Assembly: GCA_947623735.1 (NCBI GenBank)
Contig: CANQHE010000002.1
Location: 2,611 to 66,610 of the forward strand
Source: an uncultured Bacilli bacterium
Lineage (GTDB): Bacteria > Bacillota_I > Bacilli_A > RF39 > UBA660
Direction of reading: 5' to 3'
DNA: 64,000 nucleotides
In this document: positions 1,077 to 44,650 of the stretch, piece after piece
Layout of the letters: each line of letters starts with the position of its first letter
How positions within the stretch are numbered: position 1 is the first letter of the stretch
Notes under the pieces: generated by a model
Told to the model about the DNA's origin: nothing
Database searches by the model: none
Seen by the model: only the letters and a program-made list of their open reading frames with translations
Position numbers and translations under genes: made by a program

Positions 1077-2603
1077 TTATTTATTTTCAATACGATTAAA
1101 TAATATCTTTGGTTCATTTAAAGTTAAGTTTTCTTCTAATTCGCCAAAATTACTTATACTAGCATAAGATGTTTTTTTTGTATTTAATTCATCTAAGATG
1201 CTTTTAGAAGTTGTGGGAATAAAAGGACTTAACAGGATAGCACAATGACGAATACTTTCTAATAAGTTATATAGAATGGTTGCAAGACGGTCTTTTTTTG
1301 CTTCGTCTTTAGCAAGGGTCCATGGAGTTGTTTCATCAATATATTTATTACATGAGCGAAGAACTTCCATGATTTCATCTAAGGCTTCATTTACTTTTAA
1401 TTCGTTCATTTTGGTTTCAACAATATCTTTTAGGGCTAAAACACTCTCTATAAGTTTATTATCAATTTCTTCATTTAATTTTGGATTAGAGGTTAAGCCT
1501 TTAAAATATTTATGAGACATACTAATGGTGCGATTTACAAGATTACCTAGAGTATTGGCTAAATCAGAATTAGTGCGGGAAATAAGGGCTTCTTCAGAAA
1601 AATTGCCATCATTACCAAACGGAACTTCTCTTAGAGCATAATATCTTACTGCATCTACACCATAATCTTTAATATATTCCCGAGGGTCTTTATAGTTTCC
1701 AAGACTTTTAGAGATTTTACCCCCATCAATTTTTAACCAACCATGGCCAAAGACTTGTTTTGGAAGGGGTAAATCTAAAGCCATAAGCATACATGGCCAA
1801 ATTATAGTATGAAATCTAACTATTTCTTTGCCAACTAAATGAAGGTCGGCGGGCCAGTATTTTTTAAATAATTCACTATTTTCATCAGGATAACCTAAGG
1901 AAGTGATATAGTTTGATAGAGCATCAACCCAAACATAAACAACATGATTAGGGTCAAAATCAACAGGTATGCCCCATTTAAAGGAAGTACGAGAGACACA
2001 TAAGTCTTCAAGTCCTGGTTTAATAAAATTGTTTAACATCTCATTTTTGCGAGATAATGGTAAAATAAAGTCGGGATGTTCATCATAAAATTGGATTAAT
2101 TTATCTTGATATTTAGAAAGTCTAAAGAAATAGGCTTCTTCACTTACTTCTTTTAATTCACGACCACAGTCAGGACATTTACCATCAATGGCTTGGCTTT
2201 CCGTCCAAAAAGATTCACAGGGAATACAATATAAACCTTTATATTCGCCTTTATAAATATCACCTTTATCATATAGTTTTTTAAATATTTTCTGAACGGC
2301 CTTTTCATGATTTTCGTCGGTTGTTCTGATAAAATAATCGTAAGATATATTAAGGGAAGCCCACAAATCTTTCGCATCAGCAATAATTTTATCAACATAT
2401 TCTTTAGGGGTTACGTTTTGTTCTTTCGCCTTTTTCTCAATTTTTTCGCCATGTTCATCGGTGCCGGTTTGAAAAAAAACATCATAACCAGTCATTCTTT
2501 TGTATCTGGCAATAGCATCCGCGATAATAGTGGTGTAACAGTGGCCAATATGAAAGTTGGCACTAGGATAATAAATAGGAGTTGTAATATAATATTTTTT
2601 CAT
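1077..2603 (-). CDS. metG: Methionine--tRNA ligase (short form)
   Basis: Class I motifs PSANFHIGHCYT and GGKISKSLGN, plus zinc knuckles CIPCESF...CPDCG. Start set at ATG 2603 (MKKYYITTPIYY). A T-box leader lies upstream. Confidence 0.93.
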   Translation of the reverse strand: MKKYYITTPIYYPSANFHIGHCYTTIIADAIARYKRMTGYDVFFQTGTDEHGEKIEKKAKEQNVTPKEYVDKIIADAKDLWASLNISYDYFIRTTDENHEKAVQKIFKKLYDKGDIYKGEYKGLYCIPCESFWTESQAIDGKCPDCGRELKEVSEEAYFFRLSKYQDKLIQFYDEHPDFILPLSRKNEMLNNFIKPGLEDLCVSRTSFKWGIPVDFDPNHVVYVWVDALSNYITSLGYPDENSELFKKYWPADLHLVGKEIVRFHTIIWPCMLMALDLPLPKQVFGHGWLKIDGGKISKSLGNYKDPREYIKDYGVDAVRYYALREVPFGNDGNFSEEALISRTNSDLANTLGNLVNRTISMSHKYFKGLTSNPKLNEEIDNKLIESVLALKDIVETKMNELKVNEALDEIMEVLRSCNKYIDETTPWTLAKDEAKKDRLATILYNLLESIRHCAILLSPFIPTTSKSILDELNTKKTSYASISNFGELEENLTLNEPKILFNRIENK

Positions 2604-2636: not shown

Positions 2637-2822
2637 AAATTAAGGACGAGATAGAACCCGCGGTACCACCTTAATTCATGATTTTTTCATGCTCTTTACT
2701 TTTAACGCAAGTTTTACGATTAAACTCCGGAGTCATCTTCCATATTATTTATTATTCGTTTACAGCAACCACGAACTTTCTTTGAATAAATAATATGTAC
2801 TCATTCCTTCAACATTTATGTA
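2637..2822 (-). promoter_or_regulatory. T-box riboswitch leader of metG
   Basis: The minus strand reads AATTAAGGTGGTACCGCGGG (plus-strand 2657-2676), which is the conserved T-box sequence. A candidate AUG (Met) specifier sits at 2741-2743 in AAUAAUAUGGAAG. A T-run precedes the metG SD. Confidence 0.8.
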
Positions 2823-2827
2823 GTTTT

Positions 2828-2856
2828 ATTATATGCGAAGTTTAATTAAATGTCAA
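2828..2856 (-). promoter_or_regulatory. Consensus sigma-A promoter for the metG leader
   Basis: Minus strand: TTGACA (2856-2851), a 17-nt spacer, then TATAAT (2833-2828). The -35 overlaps the 3' end of spoVT. Confidence 0.65.
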
Positions 2857-3364
2857 GTTTCTCATTAAAGATACTGGATATCAGTTTACCTAGGGCTAGT
2901 TCATTTGTTAGTTTTTCTTTATTATACATAATAACTAAACCAATACTATCATTTAAAGATATAATGGGAATAAAAATAAAATTTCCATTTAAAGTTTCAT
3001 TATCAACATTTATTTCATAGTTTTCTTTTATGATTATTTCCCGATTTTCCATGATATTTAAATATTCAGAATTTATTTTTAAATTATTTATAAATTCTGG
3101 CATACCAGATGATGATAAGACTTTTTCTCTATCAGTTATAATAATACTATAATTAAAGGTATTATATATTAAATTACATAGTTTAGTAGCAAGTTCTTGG
3201 GTACTTTCAAGACGATTATATTTTTTTAGAATAATACTTTCATTTTCCATAAATATTTCAATATTTTCACCATCACGAATACCCAGATTTCGACGTATTT
3301 CTTTCGGAATTACTATTCTTCCTAATTCATCTATTCTTCTTATAATACCAGTTGATTTTAGCAA
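2846..3364 (-). CDS. spoVT: Stage V sporulation protein T (AbrB-type N-domain plus GAF-like C-domain)
   Basis: LKSTGIIRRIDELGRIVIPKEIRRNLGIRDGENIEIF matches the SpoVT/AbrB swapped-hairpin domain. Start placed at TTG 3364 (SD GGAG 9 nt upstream); ATG 3379 is the alternative. The ORF-track extension to 3475 runs through an upstream terminator. Confidence 0.85.
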   Translation of the reverse strand: MLKSTGIIRRIDELGRIVIPKEIRRNLGIRDGENIEIFMENESIILKKYNRLESTQELATKLCNLIYNTFNYSIIITDREKVLSSSGMPEFINNLKINSEYLNIMENREIIIKENYEINVDNETLNGNFIFIPIISLNDSIGLVIMYNKEKLTNELALGKLISSIFNEKLDI

Positions 3365-3424
3365 TGTATACAACTCCATTTCTAATATTAATATTGATAA
3401 GATAGAGTTTTTTATACGTGTTTT

Positions 3425-3454
3425 AAATAAAAAATTGAGGAGAATAATCTCCTC
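3425..3454 (-). terminator. Intrinsic terminator of the 3512-4819 gene
   Basis: GAGGAG (3437-3442) pairs with CTCCTC (3449-3454), followed by a T-run on the minus strand. A second hairpin, CTTGCCCATG...CATGAGCAAG, lies at ~3467-3505. Confidence 0.7.
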
Positions 3455-3511
3455 GTGGAATTTCATCTTGCCCATGTATAGATTAATATAAGCAACATGA
3501 GCAAGTTTATA

Positions 3512-4819
3512 TTAATCTGTATTTACAATATATGGATTAGTTGTGGTTCCATTGCCACCTTCTTTAAAGGTAACGTCTGCCTTGAGGTTTATGACAGGAC
3601 GAGCACCATTAATAGTGCCATTTACACCAACATTACTAAGTTTGCCATTATTAGTTACCAGAAACACGATAGCGCCAACACCATTAAAATTATACGGCGA
3701 CATAGTCCAGTAAAATTGGTTTGTATATAACCAGTATCCAGTATTTACTTCACTTGCAAAGCCTCCAGCATAGATTACTTCGTCCATAGTTATTAAGCCG
3801 ACTGGTATTGGTAAGGCATCATTTCCTTTTCCATCTTGAGCTTTTGGACCAGTGTATAAATCTCTTGCTGTATTTTCACATTTAAGCGTTGGATTTTGTT
3901 CTTCTATTTTATAACTATCGCTTCCACTTTGCCATACTTTATCGGCTCCATATACTGTTTTTATATTTCCATATCCTAAATCCCCTGTTCCAAGATAACT
4001 ACTTCCATGATTATTTCTTGTGTAAGTTCTGTCACCACAAAAACCAGTTTCTACATCTATTTTATCTGACAACTCTACTAAATTTGTGCTATTTTCATAC
4101 CAATATTTTATTTCATCTAATATTGTACTTTCTGTTTCTGGTTTATGGGCTTCTTCATAATTTGTACTTGCTTGTTCAGAGTTGCCTCCATACATATACC
4201 CTACATATTTGTTATCATTAAAATTTGTATTGAATATTATTGATTTTATATAACTATTATCTGCTGGAGTTCTTGGTGTTATCATAGTAATATCGCCGAT
4301 TGTTTCGGGAGCTTGAATAACACTATTACTCGTGCCAGCATAGATTAACCTTATTGTATCGTTGCCATTGATTCGAATAATTCGCCACCAGATATACTCA
4401 CTATTTGTTTTATCTGTTCCAAAAACTACCCAGTTATTATCCACTGTTCCTCGATAATAATAACTTGTTCCATAATCATCGTCTGTTTCATATATTCCAT
4501 TTTCAGATAAATTGCACCCACTATCACATGATGTTCCCGTAAATGTACCTTTCTTACTAGTTGTTTGCGCTTTTATTGCTTCATTTAGTAGTGGCAATTC
4601 TTTTTCTTCAAAATATAAATAACATTTAGTATTCTTTTTAGTTAATGTTGAGACACTCAAAGTTTGAGTACCACTATCATATGCTACTCTTCCTGTTAAT
4701 TTATCTTCACTATCTGGTTCAATACAATATGTTTCATCTGTATTTAAAACATAATTACCTTCGGGTATGGCACTTGTTTGATGATACTCGTTATCTTCAC
4801 CTTTTAAATAAATAGCCAT
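3512..4819 (-). CDS. Large secreted/anchored protein of unknown function, paralog 1; body ORF lacks its signal anchor in the current frame
   Basis: Strong similarity to the 43145-44650 product across blocks GTVDNNWVVFG, EYIWWRIIRINGN, NDNKYVGYMYG, IDVETGFCGDRT, PVGLITMDEVIY, GYWLYTNQFYW-MSP and RPVINLKADVTF. There is no SD before ATG 4819. Confidence 0.75.
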   Translation of the reverse strand: MAIYLKGEDNEYHQTSAIPEGNYVLNTDETYCIEPDSEDKLTGRVAYDSGTQTLSVSTLTKKNTKCYLYFEEKELPLLNEAIKAQTTSKKGTFTGTSCDSGCNLSENGIYETDDDYGTSYYYRGTVDNNWVVFGTDKTNSEYIWWRIIRINGNDTIRLIYAGTSNSVIQAPETIGDITMITPRTPADNSYIKSIIFNTNFNDNKYVGYMYGGNSEQASTNYEEAHKPETESTILDEIKYWYENSTNLVELSDKIDVETGFCGDRTYTRNNHGSSYLGTGDLGYGNIKTVYGADKVWQSGSDSYKIEEQNPTLKCENTARDLYTGPKAQDGKGNDALPIPVGLITMDEVIYAGGFASEVNTGYWLYTNQFYWTMSPYNFNGVGAIVFLVTNNGKLSNVGVNGTINGARPVINLKADVTFKEGGNGTTTNPYIVNTD

Positions 4820-4874
4820 ACTATTTTCAATATTTAAAGTTTCATTTGTTAGTTCTTGAGTATTATTTTGGGGT

Positions 4875-4943
4875 TTATTTAGATATAATATACCCCCCCC
4901 CCAATAGGGTTATTGCACTTATTATTGCTATTTTCTTATTCAT
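4875..4943 (-). CDS. Detached 5' segment (signal anchor) of the 3512-4819 gene, out of frame at the G10 tract
   Basis: ATG 4943 has SD AAGGGA 9 nt upstream and reads MNKKIAIISAITLLGGGYIISK, ending at stop 4877-4875. Removing one G fuses it in frame to the body ORF. Confidence 0.65.
   Translation of the reverse strand: MNKKIAIISAITLLGGGYIISK
4893..4902 (-). repeat. Homopolymeric G10 (C10 on the plus strand) tract inside a coding region
   Basis: Ten consecutive C on the plus strand, counted directly. This is the only long G/C homopolymer I saw in this very AT-rich window. Confidence 0.9.
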
Positions 4944-5023
4944 AAATAATCATCCCTTTGTATTATACTTTTCTAACTTATATTTCTAATATACAATATT
5001 ATTGATATTATTTCAAGTATTTT

Positions 5024-8000
5024 TTATAAATAATCATTTTTAATTAATTCTAATAAAGGAACAAAAGAATATAAGAAATGTTTTGCATCTTTCTTTAACA
5101 TGAGGGATATTTTAATACGTTTATTTTGATATTTAAATTTGAAATCAGGATTAATATTATAACTTTCTAAGAATAATTTATCAGCCTTTATATTATTAGA
5201 TAATTCCTCTGGTAATTCTAATTCAATATAATTTTTAGTTTGCGTTACTCTTTTAATATCTAAAGTATTAGCAAGTTTTTCAAACCATTCTTCATACATA
5301 TAAATGATTATTTCTTCGGATACTTTACCAAAACGGTCCTCTAATTCTTGTTTTATTCGCTCCAGAGATTCTTTTGATTCGACTTCGTTTATCTTGTTAT
5401 GAATTTCAATTTTTATTTCATCATCTTTGACATAATCATCACTAATATGGGTTGAAACATTTATTAAAGCGGTTGGAGATGTATCTTGTTTTACTTCTTC
5501 TCCTTTTAAGCGATGCATTTCTTCTTCAATCATTTCCATGTATAAATTAATACCTACCGAATCAACAAAACCGGCTTGTTCACTTCCTAAAATATCCCCG
5601 GCACCACGGATGGCTAAATCACGCATCGCAATACGATAGCCACTTCCAAGTTCGGTAAATTCTTTGATGGCTTCTAGTCTTTTAATCGCGGTTTCATTTA
5701 AGATTTTGCTTTTATCATATAAAAGATAAGCATAAGCAATTTTATTAGAACGACCCACACGACCCCGAATTTGATAGAGCTGAGATAAACCAAAATGGTC
5801 AGCATTATAAATAATTAAAGTATTAGCATTAGGAATATCAATACCAGTTTCTATAATTGTAGTACAAACTAAGATATCATATTTGTAATCAATAAAGTCT
5901 TGCATGATATTTTCAAGTTCCATTTTAGTCATCCGGCCATGGGCTTTAATGATACGGGCATCAGGTGCTAAAGTACTAATTTTATTAATAAGTCTATCTA
6001 AACCATCAATATTATTATATAAGATAAATATTTGACCATTTCGAGATAATTCTTTATAAATAGCATCTTTAACAATTAAATCGTCATTTTCTAAGACATA
6101 AGTTTGGATAGGATATCTATTTACAGGGGCGGTATCAATCACGGATAAATCTCTTAGACCCGACATAGCCATTTTAAGAGTTCTAGGTATAGGAGTCGCG
6201 GATAAAGTTAAAACATTAATATCATTTTTTAGTTCTTTAATCTTTTCTTTATGAGTAACACCAAAACGTTGTTCTTCATCAACAACTAATAAACCTAAAT
6301 TTTTGCATTTAATATCATTACTTAAAAGACGATGGGTGCCAAATAAAATATCTATTTTGCCATTGGTTAAATCATCTAAGATTTTTTTGGTATCTTTAGG
6401 ACTTGTAAAACGATTTAAAAGAGCAATATTAATTGGATAATCTTTAAAACGATTTAGGGCGGAATTATATTGTTGGCGCGATAAAATCGTCGTAGGACAC
6501 AAATATAAGACTTGCATATTATTTAAAATGGTTTTAAACATGGCCCGGAAGGCAACTTCAGTTTTACCAAAACCAACATCGCCACATAAAAGACGGTCCA
6601 TAGGAACAGGACTTTTTAAGTCAATATCGATTTCTTTAATGGCTTTATCTTGGTCTTTAGTGGGTGTATATTTAAAAGAAGAAGCAAATTCATCTTCAAG
6701 AGCATATGATTCATAAGCGGGGCCTTTTAGAGCCATTCTTTCAGCATATAGTTTTAGTAATTCTTCTGAGATATCTTTAATTCTTTTTTGAACACTTCTT
6801 TTAGTTTTAGCCCAAGAAGTAGAGTTTAGTTTATTAATTTTAGGTTTTAAGCCATCCTTACTAGAATATTTTAAAATTGTACTTATTTTTTCTACCGGAA
6901 CATAGACTTTATCATTTCCTTCATAGAGTATTTCTAAATAATCTTTTTCAAAACCATTTTGGGTTAAGGTTTTTATGCCATTATAAATACCAATACCATG
7001 GGCGAGATGGACAACATAATCACCTAAATTAAGAGAGTTTAAATCTTTTATTTTACGGCCAATTTTATAAGTGTTTTTATATTTTATTTCGGTTCTCGTA
7101 ATATTTTCAATATCATATTCTGTTATAACGACATATTTATCAAAGATAAAACCTTTAGTTAGAGGAACATCAATGACTTTAAAGGGTACTTCAAGCGTTT
7201 CTTTTAAGAGTTTAACTTGATTTTTTTTAGATAAACTAAAAATTATTTCATAACCTTTTTTATGCCATAGGGTTGTCATTTCTTTTAGACGAGTGAAATC
7301 AGAATTAAAATTAGTGATATTACTACTACTGAAGTTAAGAGCCTTTTTAGTGTCTATTTTATTATCTATGAGATTTAAATAAAGGTTATATTTAGGATTA
7401 ATTTCATCTAAACTAAACATAAATCTAGTATCAGAGTCAAGATTTTGGGCAACTTTATATTCAAACATTTCTTCTTCTAATTTTTTATAACTAGCTTTTA
7501 TACGATTATAATCGATATTTACGACGATAGCATCTTTTAGATAATCATATAAACTGGATTTAGTGTTGGTTTTTATTTCGCCATTGGGGATTAAATTAAT
7601 AGTGGAAATTTCTTCAATAGACATTTGACTTTCTTCATCAAAATAGCGAATTGATTCAATAGTATTCCCAAAAAACTCCAGGCGTATCGGATGTTCACTT
7701 AAGGTAACAAAAATATCAATAACAAAACCTCTTACCGCATATTCGCCGGTGGAAGTAACGATAGATTCTTTTTTATAATCAAGTTCATTTAATAAATCAA
7801 TTAATTTATCCCGGTTTATTTCCATATTTTTTTTAAGAGTGATATTTAATTTGGCTTGAAGTTTACTATCGGTTAGATATTTTAAGTAACCCATTAAATT
7901 AGTGATTACAATGCCTTTATCTTTTTTGATGGCTTCTAAAGTTTCAATACGATTATTTTTTAGTTCGGGAGATATAGCTAGAGCAACACTCGCGAGAAAG

Positions 8001-14439: not shown

Positions 14440-14451
14440 TTTATCCTCCAT

Positions 14452-14529
14452 AAAAAAAGTGCACACAAATAGGGATTGATGTGGCTGCTACTTTCCAGTT
14501 CTGACCAGGTTACAATATATTTGTTGCAC
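14452..14529 (-). ncRNA. ffs: Small (4.5S-type) signal recognition particle RNA
   Basis: The minus strand reads GUGCAACAAAUA...CCUGGUCAGAACUGGAAAGUAGCAGCCACAUC...UAUUUGUGUGCAC plus a U-run. The domain IV motif GGUCAG..GGAA..AGCAGCC and a closing helix are present. Confidence 0.8.
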
Positions 14530-14570
14530 GATATAAATGTATCACATTTTTTTAGTTTTGGCAAGAGGAA

Positions 14571-43144: not shown

Positions 43145-44650
43145 TTAATTTGTTTGAACTATATATGGATTTGTTGGTGTACCGTTTCCACCAGATTCGA
43201 AAGTAACATCGGCTTTTAAGTTTATTACAGGACGCACACCATTGATATTGTTGTTCACGTATTCGCCGGAGAGGAGGCCATTAGGCGCTACATGGAAAAT
43301 ATTAGCACGTCCTTCGTAAAAGTCACACGGAGACATTATCCAATAAAATTGATTTGTATATAACCAGTATCCATTATTTGTTTTTCCTCCAAAACCTCCT
43401 GAATATATTACTTCATCCATTGTGATTAATCCTACTGGCACTGATAAGGCATTATTTCCTTCTACATTTCCATCAATTCCTTTTGTTTCTCCTGTTGCGC
43501 TTGGACCTGTATATAAATCTCTAACTGTATTTGCGCATTTTAATGTTGGTGTTTGCTCATCTGTTCTATAATTTGTACTATTTTGTTGTTTTACTCTATC
43601 TAATGAGACGTATTCTGATTGTTCTTTTCCATAGCCTGGGCCTGAAGCTCTATGATTTTCTGTTGCCAAAGTTCTATCTCCACAAAAGCCTGTTTCAACA
43701 TCTATGTACTCTGATAAACTACCTAAATCTGTATTATTTGTATACCAATTTTCTACTTCTTTTAATATCGTACTTTTAGTTTCTGGTTTATGTGCTGTTT
43801 CATAATTTGTGCTTGCTTCTCCTTCTTTTTCGCCATACATATATCCTACGTATTTGTTATCATTATATTGTTCATTAAATTTTACAGCCATTTTATATTG
43901 TTCATTACTATTTATTTGCTTTTGTGGTGTTATCATTGTTCCATTTCCTGTTCTATCTGGAGCTTCTGTTGTGTTACTACTTGTTCCGGCATACATCAAT
44001 CTTAAAGTGCCATTGCCATTTATTCTGATTATCCTCCACCAGATATATTCATTACTATTTTTAGTATCTTTGCCAAATACTACCCAGTTATTATCTACCG
44101 TTCCTCTATATACGTAACTATCTCCAAAATCGTCTTCTCCATAATATAAACCATTCTCTTTTAATGTACAATCACCTTCACAACTAGTTCCTGTAAATGT
44201 AGGTGTTCCTTTTACTGTTTGATTTAGTTTATTTAATGTTTCATTTGCTAATGTGTTTTTCATAAACCATACATAACATTTATCATTTTTCTTTAAATCA
44301 CTAAATGTATGTTTTCCATTTATTGTTTCTAACTTATCATATACTTTTTCTTTATTATCATTAGTACAATAACTTTTGGCTTTATTGATAATATATTTAC
44401 TTCCATCCGGTACTATATCAAGTGTTTTTTCATTACCATTATCTTCTAATTCATATAAAGCCATAATTTTAAAATCATAACCTGTAGTAGTTATAGTACC
44501 TCTTGCTATAGGTATACTTTCAGTTAGTTTATACTTTGCCTTTGTTAAAAACAAATTCATTATTATCATGATTATTGTACATACTATAAACCCGTAGATA
44601 AACATTTTGCTTCCTTTACTTTTACTATAATTTAATTTTTCAAACTTCAA
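43145..44650 (-). CDS. Large secreted/anchored protein of unknown function, paralog 2 (intact)
   Basis: TTG start with SD GAAGGGAAG. Basic N-terminus plus TM helix (MFIYGFIVCTIIMIIMNLFL). Shares conserved blocks with the 3512-4819 product through the C-terminus (GGNGTPTNPYIVQTN). Confidence 0.8.
   Translation of the reverse strand: MKFEKLNYSKSKGSKMFIYGFIVCTIIMIIMNLFLTKAKYKLTESIPIARGTITTTGYDFKIMALYELEDNGNEKTLDIVPDGSKYIINKAKSYCTNDNKEKVYDKLETINGKHTFSDLKKNDKCYVWFMKNTLANETLNKLNQTVKGTPTFTGTSCEGDCTLKENGLYYGEDDFGDSYVYRGTVDNNWVVFGKDTKNSNEYIWWRIIRINGNGTLRLMYAGTSSNTTEAPDRTGNGTMITPQKQINSNEQYKMAVKFNEQYNDNKYVGYMYGEKEGEASTNYETAHKPETKSTILKEVENWYTNNTDLGSLSEYIDVETGFCGDRTLATENHRASGPGYGKEQSEYVSLDRVKQQNSTNYRTDEQTPTLKCANTVRDLYTGPSATGETKGIDGNVEGNNALSVPVGLITMDEVIYSGGFGGKTNNGYWLYTNQFYWIMSPCDFYEGRANIFHVAPNGLLSGEYVNNNINGVRPVINLKADVTFESGGNGTPTNPYIVQTN

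Follow-up and report, generated by a model that had tools for sequence, protein, structure and literature searches.

Most known repeat-based switches belong to pathogens (for example Neisseria, Campylobacter, Helicobacter and Mycoplasma), and it is chiefly through the invertible promoters of Bacteroides that gut commensals are known to undergo phase variation. In the pilC genes of Neisseria gonorrhoeae and N. meningitidis, a poly-G tract lies among the codons of the signal peptide, and slippage by a single base switches expression ON or OFF; this placement of the pilC tract was reportedly described by Jonsson and colleagues in 1991. Helicobacter pylori oipA and Neisseria opa, which encode outer-membrane proteins, carry CT dinucleotide or CTCTT pentamer repeats. 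In Mycoplasma, the vlp, vaa and vmm genes are switched by homopolymers or other simple sequence repeats, which lie within the ORF in the case of Vaa and between the promoter hexamers in those of Vlp and Vmm.

The gene described here lies in the window, by which we mean the whole 64-kb stretch of DNA that was analysed. It resembles pilC in that a G homopolymer occupies the signal-peptide part of a candidate surface-protein gene, and in that paralogues share the 5' arrangement. It differs from pilC in its protein and in its host, both unrelated to those of that Gram-negative pathogen, in that an uncleaved anchor is predicted rather than a cleaved signal peptide, and in being known from sequence alone. 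With oipA and opa it shares a repeat within signal-peptide codons, so placed that production of the mature protein depends on the reading frame, but the repeat is a homopolymer and not a CT or CTCTT array. As with the Mycoplasma systems, the presumed surface proteins form a large paralogous family, their lineage is reduced, AT-rich and related to Bacillota, and a conserved 5' module is joined to divergent bodies. Unlike them, it has a G tract and no lipobox cysteine, whereas the Mycoplasma genes have A/T-based repeats and encode lipoproteins, and the two sets of proteins have no sequence relationship.

The poly-G tracts of Campylobacter jejuni, 8 to 11 nucleotides long, have a modal length of 9, with G8 favouring insertions and G11 deletions (Bayliss et al. 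2012, PMC3401435). Here too the genome is AT-rich (about 30% G+C), G/C runs of 8 to 11 nucleotides go far beyond background, the genes are putatively surface-related, and natural populations contain a modal tract length together with neighbouring lengths. The modal length is 10 here instead of 9, however, and the genes belong to an anchored, DUF6273-like family instead of encoding glycosyltransferases, capsule functions or flagellar modification. What is new here is the host group and the gene family, the mechanism being a classical one. In a limited literature search, we found nothing specific on repeat-based phase variation in gut MAGs or RF39, and no paper describing it in the uncultured gut Bacilli concerned or in the DUF6273-like family.

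The G10 tract and its reading frames

On the minus strand, the tract is found in the context ...ACCCTATT-G10-TATATT... (more widely, ...ATGAATAAGAAAATAGCAATAATAAGTGCAATAACCCTATT-G10-TATATTATATCTAAATAAACC...), downstream of a leader whose residues 1 to 17 form the n-region and the hydrophobic core of a signal anchor. An earlier note on this DNA had proposed the tract, the start codon and the Shine-Dalgarno sequence 9 nucleotides before it exactly as they are listed in Table 1, and reading of the sequence agrees with it on all three. Translation likewise agrees with its further claims, that the G10 frame stops after 22 codons, that G9 or G12 would join the leader to a 435-aa ORF, and that the tract lies inside the anchor codons of a candidate surface-protein gene. 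In the G10 state, the stop codon is the TAA at 4877-4875. In silico, G9 and G12 read as ...LLGGG(G)ILYLNKPQNNTQELTNETLNIENSMAIYLKGE... into the ORF 3512-4819, to give proteins of 476 and 477 aa, respectively; the tract itself supplies the codons of a Gly-Gly-Gly that falls midway along the hydrophobic helix. With G8, G10 or G11 the frame is lost, and translation terminates within 21 to 22 codons. As in known contingency loci, the repeat is located within an ORF, and the gain or loss of units toggles the frame.

Table 1. Coordinates of the gene, its candidate signals and its paralogue in the window
Feature	Position	Strand	Basis or remark
Sigma-70-type promoter candidate, TTGAAA, 17 nt, TATATT	4988..5016	-	10/12 consensus positions
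Shine-Dalgarno AAGGGA, 9 nt 5' of ATG 4943-4941	4953..4958	-	read directly
OFF-state (G10) leader frame, MNKKIAIISAITLLGGGYIISK then stop	4875..4943	-	translation
Four clustered SNPs (4935, 4925, 4918, 4917), two anchor alleles	4917..4935	-	assembly comparison
G10 homopolymer (plus-strand C10), proposed hypermutable switch	4893..4902	-	read directly
Gene body, ON frame (ILYLNKPQ...IVNTD, stop)	3512..4892	-	translation and model
Intrinsic-terminator-like stem-loop GAGGAGATTATTCTCCTC and T run, 58 nt past stop codon	3437..3454	-	sequence
Paralogue, 501 aa from TTG, MKFEKLNYS-type N-terminus and anchor	43145..44650	-	homology

The 435-aa ORF call is nothing other than the gene body taken from its first internal ATG. 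The stretch just before this ATG (4819), AATATTGAAAATAGT, does not constitute a Shine-Dalgarno sequence, as the earlier note had also remarked. The body as a whole comprises 460 codons free of stops and of any second frameshift. Upstream, in the intergenic region between mfd and the gene, a predicted promoter with the hexamers TTGAAA and TATATT is conserved within a 5' cassette that is common to a paralogue at another locus (L002, see below). With its candidate promoter, Shine-Dalgarno sequence, ATG, tract, 460 open codons and terminator-like stem-loop, the gene has the make-up of an independent transcription unit.

All the G tracts that we found, whether coding or upstream of genes, directly precede a TAT(A/T/C)(A/T)T motif (window 4887-4902; L004 3000-3015; L013, L052, L069 and L093). 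The codon phase of the G9-TATATT string differs between the window and L004. The association may be due to chance, given AT-rich hydrophobic codons in one case and -10 boxes in the other, or it may reflect a preference at the DNA level. We also considered whether G10-TATATT might form part of an internal promoter for the 435-aa ORF. Since neither the window nor L004 has an acceptable -35 hexamer at a distance of 16 to 18 nucleotides, this possibility was discarded as far as the coding cassettes are concerned.

The gene is flanked by mfd and a spoVT-like gene. The window contains dnaA-, dnaN-, recF-, gyrB- and gyrA-sized ORFs and represents an origin-proximal Bacillota region; downstream of these ORFs come holB, ricT, a methyltransferase gene, pth and mfd, followed by the gene itself, the spoVT-like gene and metG. 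A T-box leader precedes metG (2639-2821, minus strand, 114.6 bits), and a small SRP RNA is found at 14450-14535 (minus strand, 54.1 bits). The 209-aa ORF call of the spoVT-like gene (2846-3475, minus strand) begins upstream of the neighbouring gene's terminator. Its true start is probably near 3358, because the SpoVT and AbrB models match the ORF only from about residue 40. An exact look-up of the spoVT-like product of the window in protein records returned no entry, and the contigs of the entries P0003 and P0018 likewise had no record.

The question arises as to how unusual a G10 tract is in DNA of 28.9% G+C. The window contains 403 G/C runs of length 3, 66 of length 4, 16 of length 5, 2 of length 6 and 1 of length 10, the latter being the single run longer than 6 in the whole 64 kb, and none of 100 dinucleotide-preserving shuffles of the window gave a G10. 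Runs of 6, 7, 8, 9 and 10 number 3, 0, 1, 1 and 5 in 470 kb of related genome loci (including L001 and L002), and 9, 0, 0, 0 and 3 in 283 kb of metagenome loci. The distribution in related loci is bimodal, with no run at 7 and a rise at 8 to 10. Shuffles and run counts therefore agree with the view, expressed in the earlier note, that G10 is strikingly unusual in such AT-rich DNA; G/C repeats of at least 7 to 8 are over-represented relative to composition, as is the rule for contingency loci.

Homopolymers are also error-prone, and the true tract might be a G9 in an intact gene, the tenth G being a miscall or an assembly error. Within the window, long ORFs such as mfd (1069 aa) and gyrA (812 aa) are nevertheless intact despite A/T runs of up to 9, which makes a technology prone to homopolymer errors unlikely.

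Tract length in sister assemblies, paralogues and other species

The mfd-gene-spoVT region is present in four ENA metagenome assemblies of the same strain, at 99.9% identity or more to the window. The tract is a G10 in three of them (L083, L084 and L085) and a G9, in frame, in the fourth (L001). The former were retrieved by means of the OFF-state 435-aa ORF, which biases the count of G10, and L001 through a homology match. L001 is a 3.4x assembly in which a 1-bp deletion (one A) at window position 4048 breaks the gene again. The sister assemblies have a coverage of about 3x as well; L083 lacks 3 bp (window 1131-1133), and L085 lacks 4 bp of metG (window 1507-1510), which breaks this gene. These indels fall outside long homopolymers. 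Single indels in contigs of such coverage may be assembly errors, and this includes the G9 of L001, so that the lone G9 is suggestive but not proof. The comparison of tract length among related strains, which the earlier note had called for, did bring out a G9 against G10, but the sole variant comes from a 3.4x assembly with an unrelated indel. L001 excepted, every tract of the window species is seen in the OFF state. The exact in-frame, full-length product of the window gene was looked up among about 15 billion proteins as nine exact variants, covering two anchor alleles, G6, G9 and G12, and two choices of start, and none was found. Exact searches with the cassette pattern GCAATAACCCTATT-N5-15-TATATTATATC gave no hit, either among the GTDB representative genomes or in the metagenomes collected by JGI; therefore the species, or its cassette, is absent from these two sets.

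Four SNPs clustered within 19 bp of the anchor codons (Table 1) are the only substitutions in 6 to 7 kb among the five assemblies. They define two alleles, v1 (MNKKIAIISAIT; window and L085) and v2 (MNKKIALIMAIT; L001, L083 and L084), which encode ...IAIISAIT... and ...IALIMAIT..., respectively. One change is synonymous and the others replace I by L and S by M; both alleles keep the frame and the hydrophobicity, and both are good anchors. Allele v2 is identical to the cassette of L002, a family member of 62% identity located downstream of serS in sample ERZ27249187, from which L084 also comes. This cassette of about 240 bp includes the promoter candidate, the Shine-Dalgarno sequence, the v2 anchor, a G10 tract and some 40 codons. 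Between L002 (5221-5470) and the window (4790-5033, minus strand) it is 97 to 98% identical, whereas the rest of the two genes is 50 to 80% identical.

A similar mosaic is observed between L004 and L015, and between L093 and L092, where the 5' modules are 97 to 100% identical and the bodies 50 to 85%. In each case the module is made of the promoter, the Shine-Dalgarno sequence, the anchor and the G tract, together with the first tens to hundreds of codons. This pattern suggests that 5' modules undergo gene conversion or recombination within the family, a process that would also explain why the SNPs of the window locus are clustered.

A G tract at the anchor position is found in family members of two further species, which brings the design to three species in total. 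In the Lapin-030__bin11 paralogues L004 and L015, a G10 occurs in ...LILLGGG|YILARN, which is in frame at G9 or G12, and the protein P0137 is a recorded G9 product of the L015 type. In a human-gut species of the 'Mycoplasma sp. CAG:776' type, the tract lies in ...LLIVVGGG|YLKL, in a gene located between recU and divIVA. DNA of this locus has G8 in L171, G9 in L169 and G10 in L170, L092, L093 and L095, where L169, L170 and L171 each provide the DNA of one contig per product class. The G8 contig, L171, has a coverage of 18.9x and is seen in 11 samples.

Exact-sequence look-ups of the proteins, which draw on many independent metagenomes, gave contig counts for each state of the human-gut locus. 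The G9 state is represented by 408-aa forms, together with a 407-aa variant that lacks a residue elsewhere (39, 9, 2 and 1 contigs), and the G12 state, inferred from protein P0124, by a 409-aa form with four glycines (1 contig). To G10 correspond products of 393 aa whose 'MGGGYLK' start is a TTG followed by nine G (81, 19, 6, 2, 2 and 2 contigs), and to other out-of-frame states products of 326 aa (4 and 5 contigs). In total, about 52 contigs have the in-frame forms of 407 to 409 aa, about 112 the 393-aa form and 9 the 326-aa form. On this count, tract length varies naturally at the homologous human-gut locus and ON and OFF frames are both common; such polymorphism of repeat number at homologous loci of the same design is again what characterizes contingency loci. 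G8, G9 and G12 at this locus also led us to reject a uniform G10, whether taken as a technical cap or as a sign of programmed recoding.

These observations bear on the artefact. The comparison assemblies are of about 3x coverage and contain other indels, which is compatible with a miscall. However, the window, three independently assembled copies of the locus and the paralogue all show G10, and the human-gut G8, G9 and G10 are each backed by many contigs, one of them at 19x. We consider a wrongly read G9 extremely improbable.

The window gene might also be a plain pseudogene, with one base inserted into a G9 tract that is not unusually mutable, a permanent loss of function and a decaying locus. 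This would fit with G10 in the window and in three other assemblies, with the absence of an in-frame product of the window gene on record, and with the second frameshift of the sole G9 assembly; ordinary N-terminal frameshifts and deletions do occur in the family (L087 and L088). Yet 460 codons have remained open where about 8% of random codons are stops, and the codons 5' of the tract still specify a good anchor in both alleles. Moreover, three species share this lesion, which affects at least four different genes that are intact in all other respects, and the homologous tract varies in length and is often in frame. Permanent loss is, in our opinion, very unlikely.

Finally, G10 itself might be the functional state, read either by +1 frameshifting on rare GGG codons or after slippage of the RNA polymerase. 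G10, one base above the in-frame length, is the commonest state in all three coding cassettes; the frame would be recovered if tRNA-Gly slipped by +1 on GGG-GGG, and GGG is presumably a rare codon type in 29%-GC DNA. That all three cassettes are out of frame at their modal length is not significant, since with random frames the chance is about 0.3. Against such recoding, the in-frame G9 accounts for about one-third of contigs at the homologous locus, and G8 and G12 are found there too. The codon that follows the tract also differs among the cassettes (TAT in the window, GTA in L004/L015 and in L092/L093/L095), and they share neither a stop or hungry codon nor a conserved downstream element; in the relatives, the out-of-frame state and a stimulatory element, both of which programmed frameshifting calls for, are not conserved. 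We give programmed recoding a very slim chance, and retain slipped-strand switching as the best explanation of the window locus.

Not all the tracts are coding. About 130 bp before a family member, L052 (2732-2765) has a TTGACA and a TATAAT, both perfect, on either side of a 19-nt spacer that includes a G10 (TTGACA-AGTTGGTTC-G10-TATAAT). This tract looks like a promoter-spacer phase switch, because G8 would give the optimal 17-nt spacer. In L013 (5617-5652), TTGACG-C-G8-TATATTA-TATAAT has a 16-nt spacer and lies upstream of a different signal-peptide gene (MKKKNLLLGALAAFGLSG...), and L069 (2768-2777) has a G10 some 100 bp 5' of yet another family member, where the assignment of a promoter is not clear. 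Conversely, some split genes of the family are, by their sequences, not G-tract switches: L087 (about 2440-2480; P0073) has an N-terminal frameshift at a C4 run, and L088 (about 190-290; P0105), a 2x contig, has an out-of-frame deletion, neither of them with a long tract.

The encoded protein and its family

Pfam and NCBIfam scans of the in-frame protein returned no family. For PF19789 (DUF6273) in particular, the window protein had no match even at E <= 1 and did not reach the gathering score, whereas 14 of 37 aligned family members do match this model, the best with an E value of 3.2e-9. More than 7,500 homologues are present in a large protein collection. Among the 120 homologues listed, nearly all open with M-K/N-K-K and a hydrophobic stretch, and since this N-terminal design is family-wide, the anchor should be part of the functional protein. 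The first cysteine of the in-frame protein is residue 73, outside any lipobox, so that it is not expected to be a lipoprotein.

An AlphaFold model built from 37 family members (mean pLDDT 86, pTM 0.81) has low confidence over residues 1 to 38, an Ig-like sandwich at about 41 to 113 and a large globular domain at about 149 to 476. As the earlier note had proposed, repair of the frame restores an anchor followed by a large ectodomain, here a protein of 476 or 477 aa in silico with predicted Ig-like and globular parts. The fold matches of the model are weak (E 7e-3, TM about 0.2), the best one in the PDB being the IgA peptidase of Thomasclavelia ramosa (9qa6), and DUF6273 proteins of gut phages are several of the better viral matches. 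The N-terminal domain of this IgA peptidase is a DUF6273 (PMC12402451), but the window protein has no peptidase domain. DUF6273 is also present in the DGR-targeted receptor-binding proteins of phages, or 'tentaclins', where its fold is called C-type-lectin-like (PMC10743442), and we take such a fold as a sign of ligand binding. The resemblance of the globular domain to DUF6273 is weak, and the two would be remote relatives at best. From its predicted architecture, the product may be an anchored, ligand-binding surface protein, or 'surface adhesin'.

Within the GTDB representative genomes, the family is found above all in uncultured gut Bacilli. Among these are rabbit 'Lapin' MAGs, 'uncultured Tenericutes UMGS1172', 'Mycoplasma sp. 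CAG:776' and Ca. Caccenecus, and other relatives are labelled 'uncultured Bacilli'. Paralogues are numerous within a genome: a single MAG contributes at least 12 of the 80 best loci. The window itself contains a second member (Table 1), 54% identical over residues 42 to 476, whose 5' region is not the same and in which the G tract is absent. The earlier note had pointed to it as an intact paralogue with an N-terminal anchor, and its hydrophobic anchor is indeed undamaged. Its start is probably the TTG at 44650, because homologues begin with MKFEKLNYS and GAAGGGAAG is found upstream; the entry P0010 places the start at an internal ATG instead (window 44606-44650).

Probable slipped-strand switching and its possible reach

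We propose, with a probability of about 0.8, that the window gene is a slipped-strand translational ON/OFF switch and that the copy in the window is OFF. The gene would encode a membrane-anchored, surface-exposed protein belonging to a very large multigene family of AT-rich uncultured gut Bacilli, whose expression would be turned ON or OFF by slipped-strand mispairing in the poly-G tract of its signal-anchor codons. With G9 or G12, translation from ATG 4943 would yield the full protein of 476 or 477 aa. With G10, ribosomes would stop after 22 codons, and the body, having neither its own ribosome-binding site nor an anchor, would not be made. One G gained or lost at replication would then reverse the state. 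The candidate switch put forward in the earlier note gains support from the G9 and G10 of the sister assemblies, from the cassette of L002 and from the polymorphic human-gut tract. A fixed pseudogene, an artefact and an obligatory programmed frameshift all agree poorly with natural length variation and an intact body.

The tract would presumably be hypermutable and its switching reversible, and exposure at the surface and binding of a ligand by the ectodomain would be expected from the predicted architecture. The predominance of G10 could be the counterpart of the modal tract length of C. jejuni, which is ascribed to the opposite biases at G8 and G11, or could result from selection for the OFF state. 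This state may, besides, be leaky, owing to +1 or transcriptional slippage. As for the selective agent, it would presumably be host immunity, such as IgA, or phage.

More tentatively, and with less than even odds in our estimation, the window gene may belong to a lineage-wide contingency system, in which members of the DUF6273-like family would exchange or homogenise portable 5' cassettes by gene conversion, some would be controlled by promoter-spacer tracts, and combinatorial variation would result. It would extend across uncultured gut Bacilli with reduced genomes that live in rabbits, in humans and in further hosts, each genome having at least a dozen paralogues.

For annotation, the consequence is that 'split' genes of this kind should not be taken for simple pseudogenes. 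The proteins of the G-tract family are probable targets of host immunity or phages, and their ON and OFF states can be read in existing metagenome assemblies, which gives access to the population dynamics of an uncultured commensal. If the lineage-wide reading were true, commensals for which metagenomes are the sole source would vary their antigens or receptors, and public assemblies would show the states directly.
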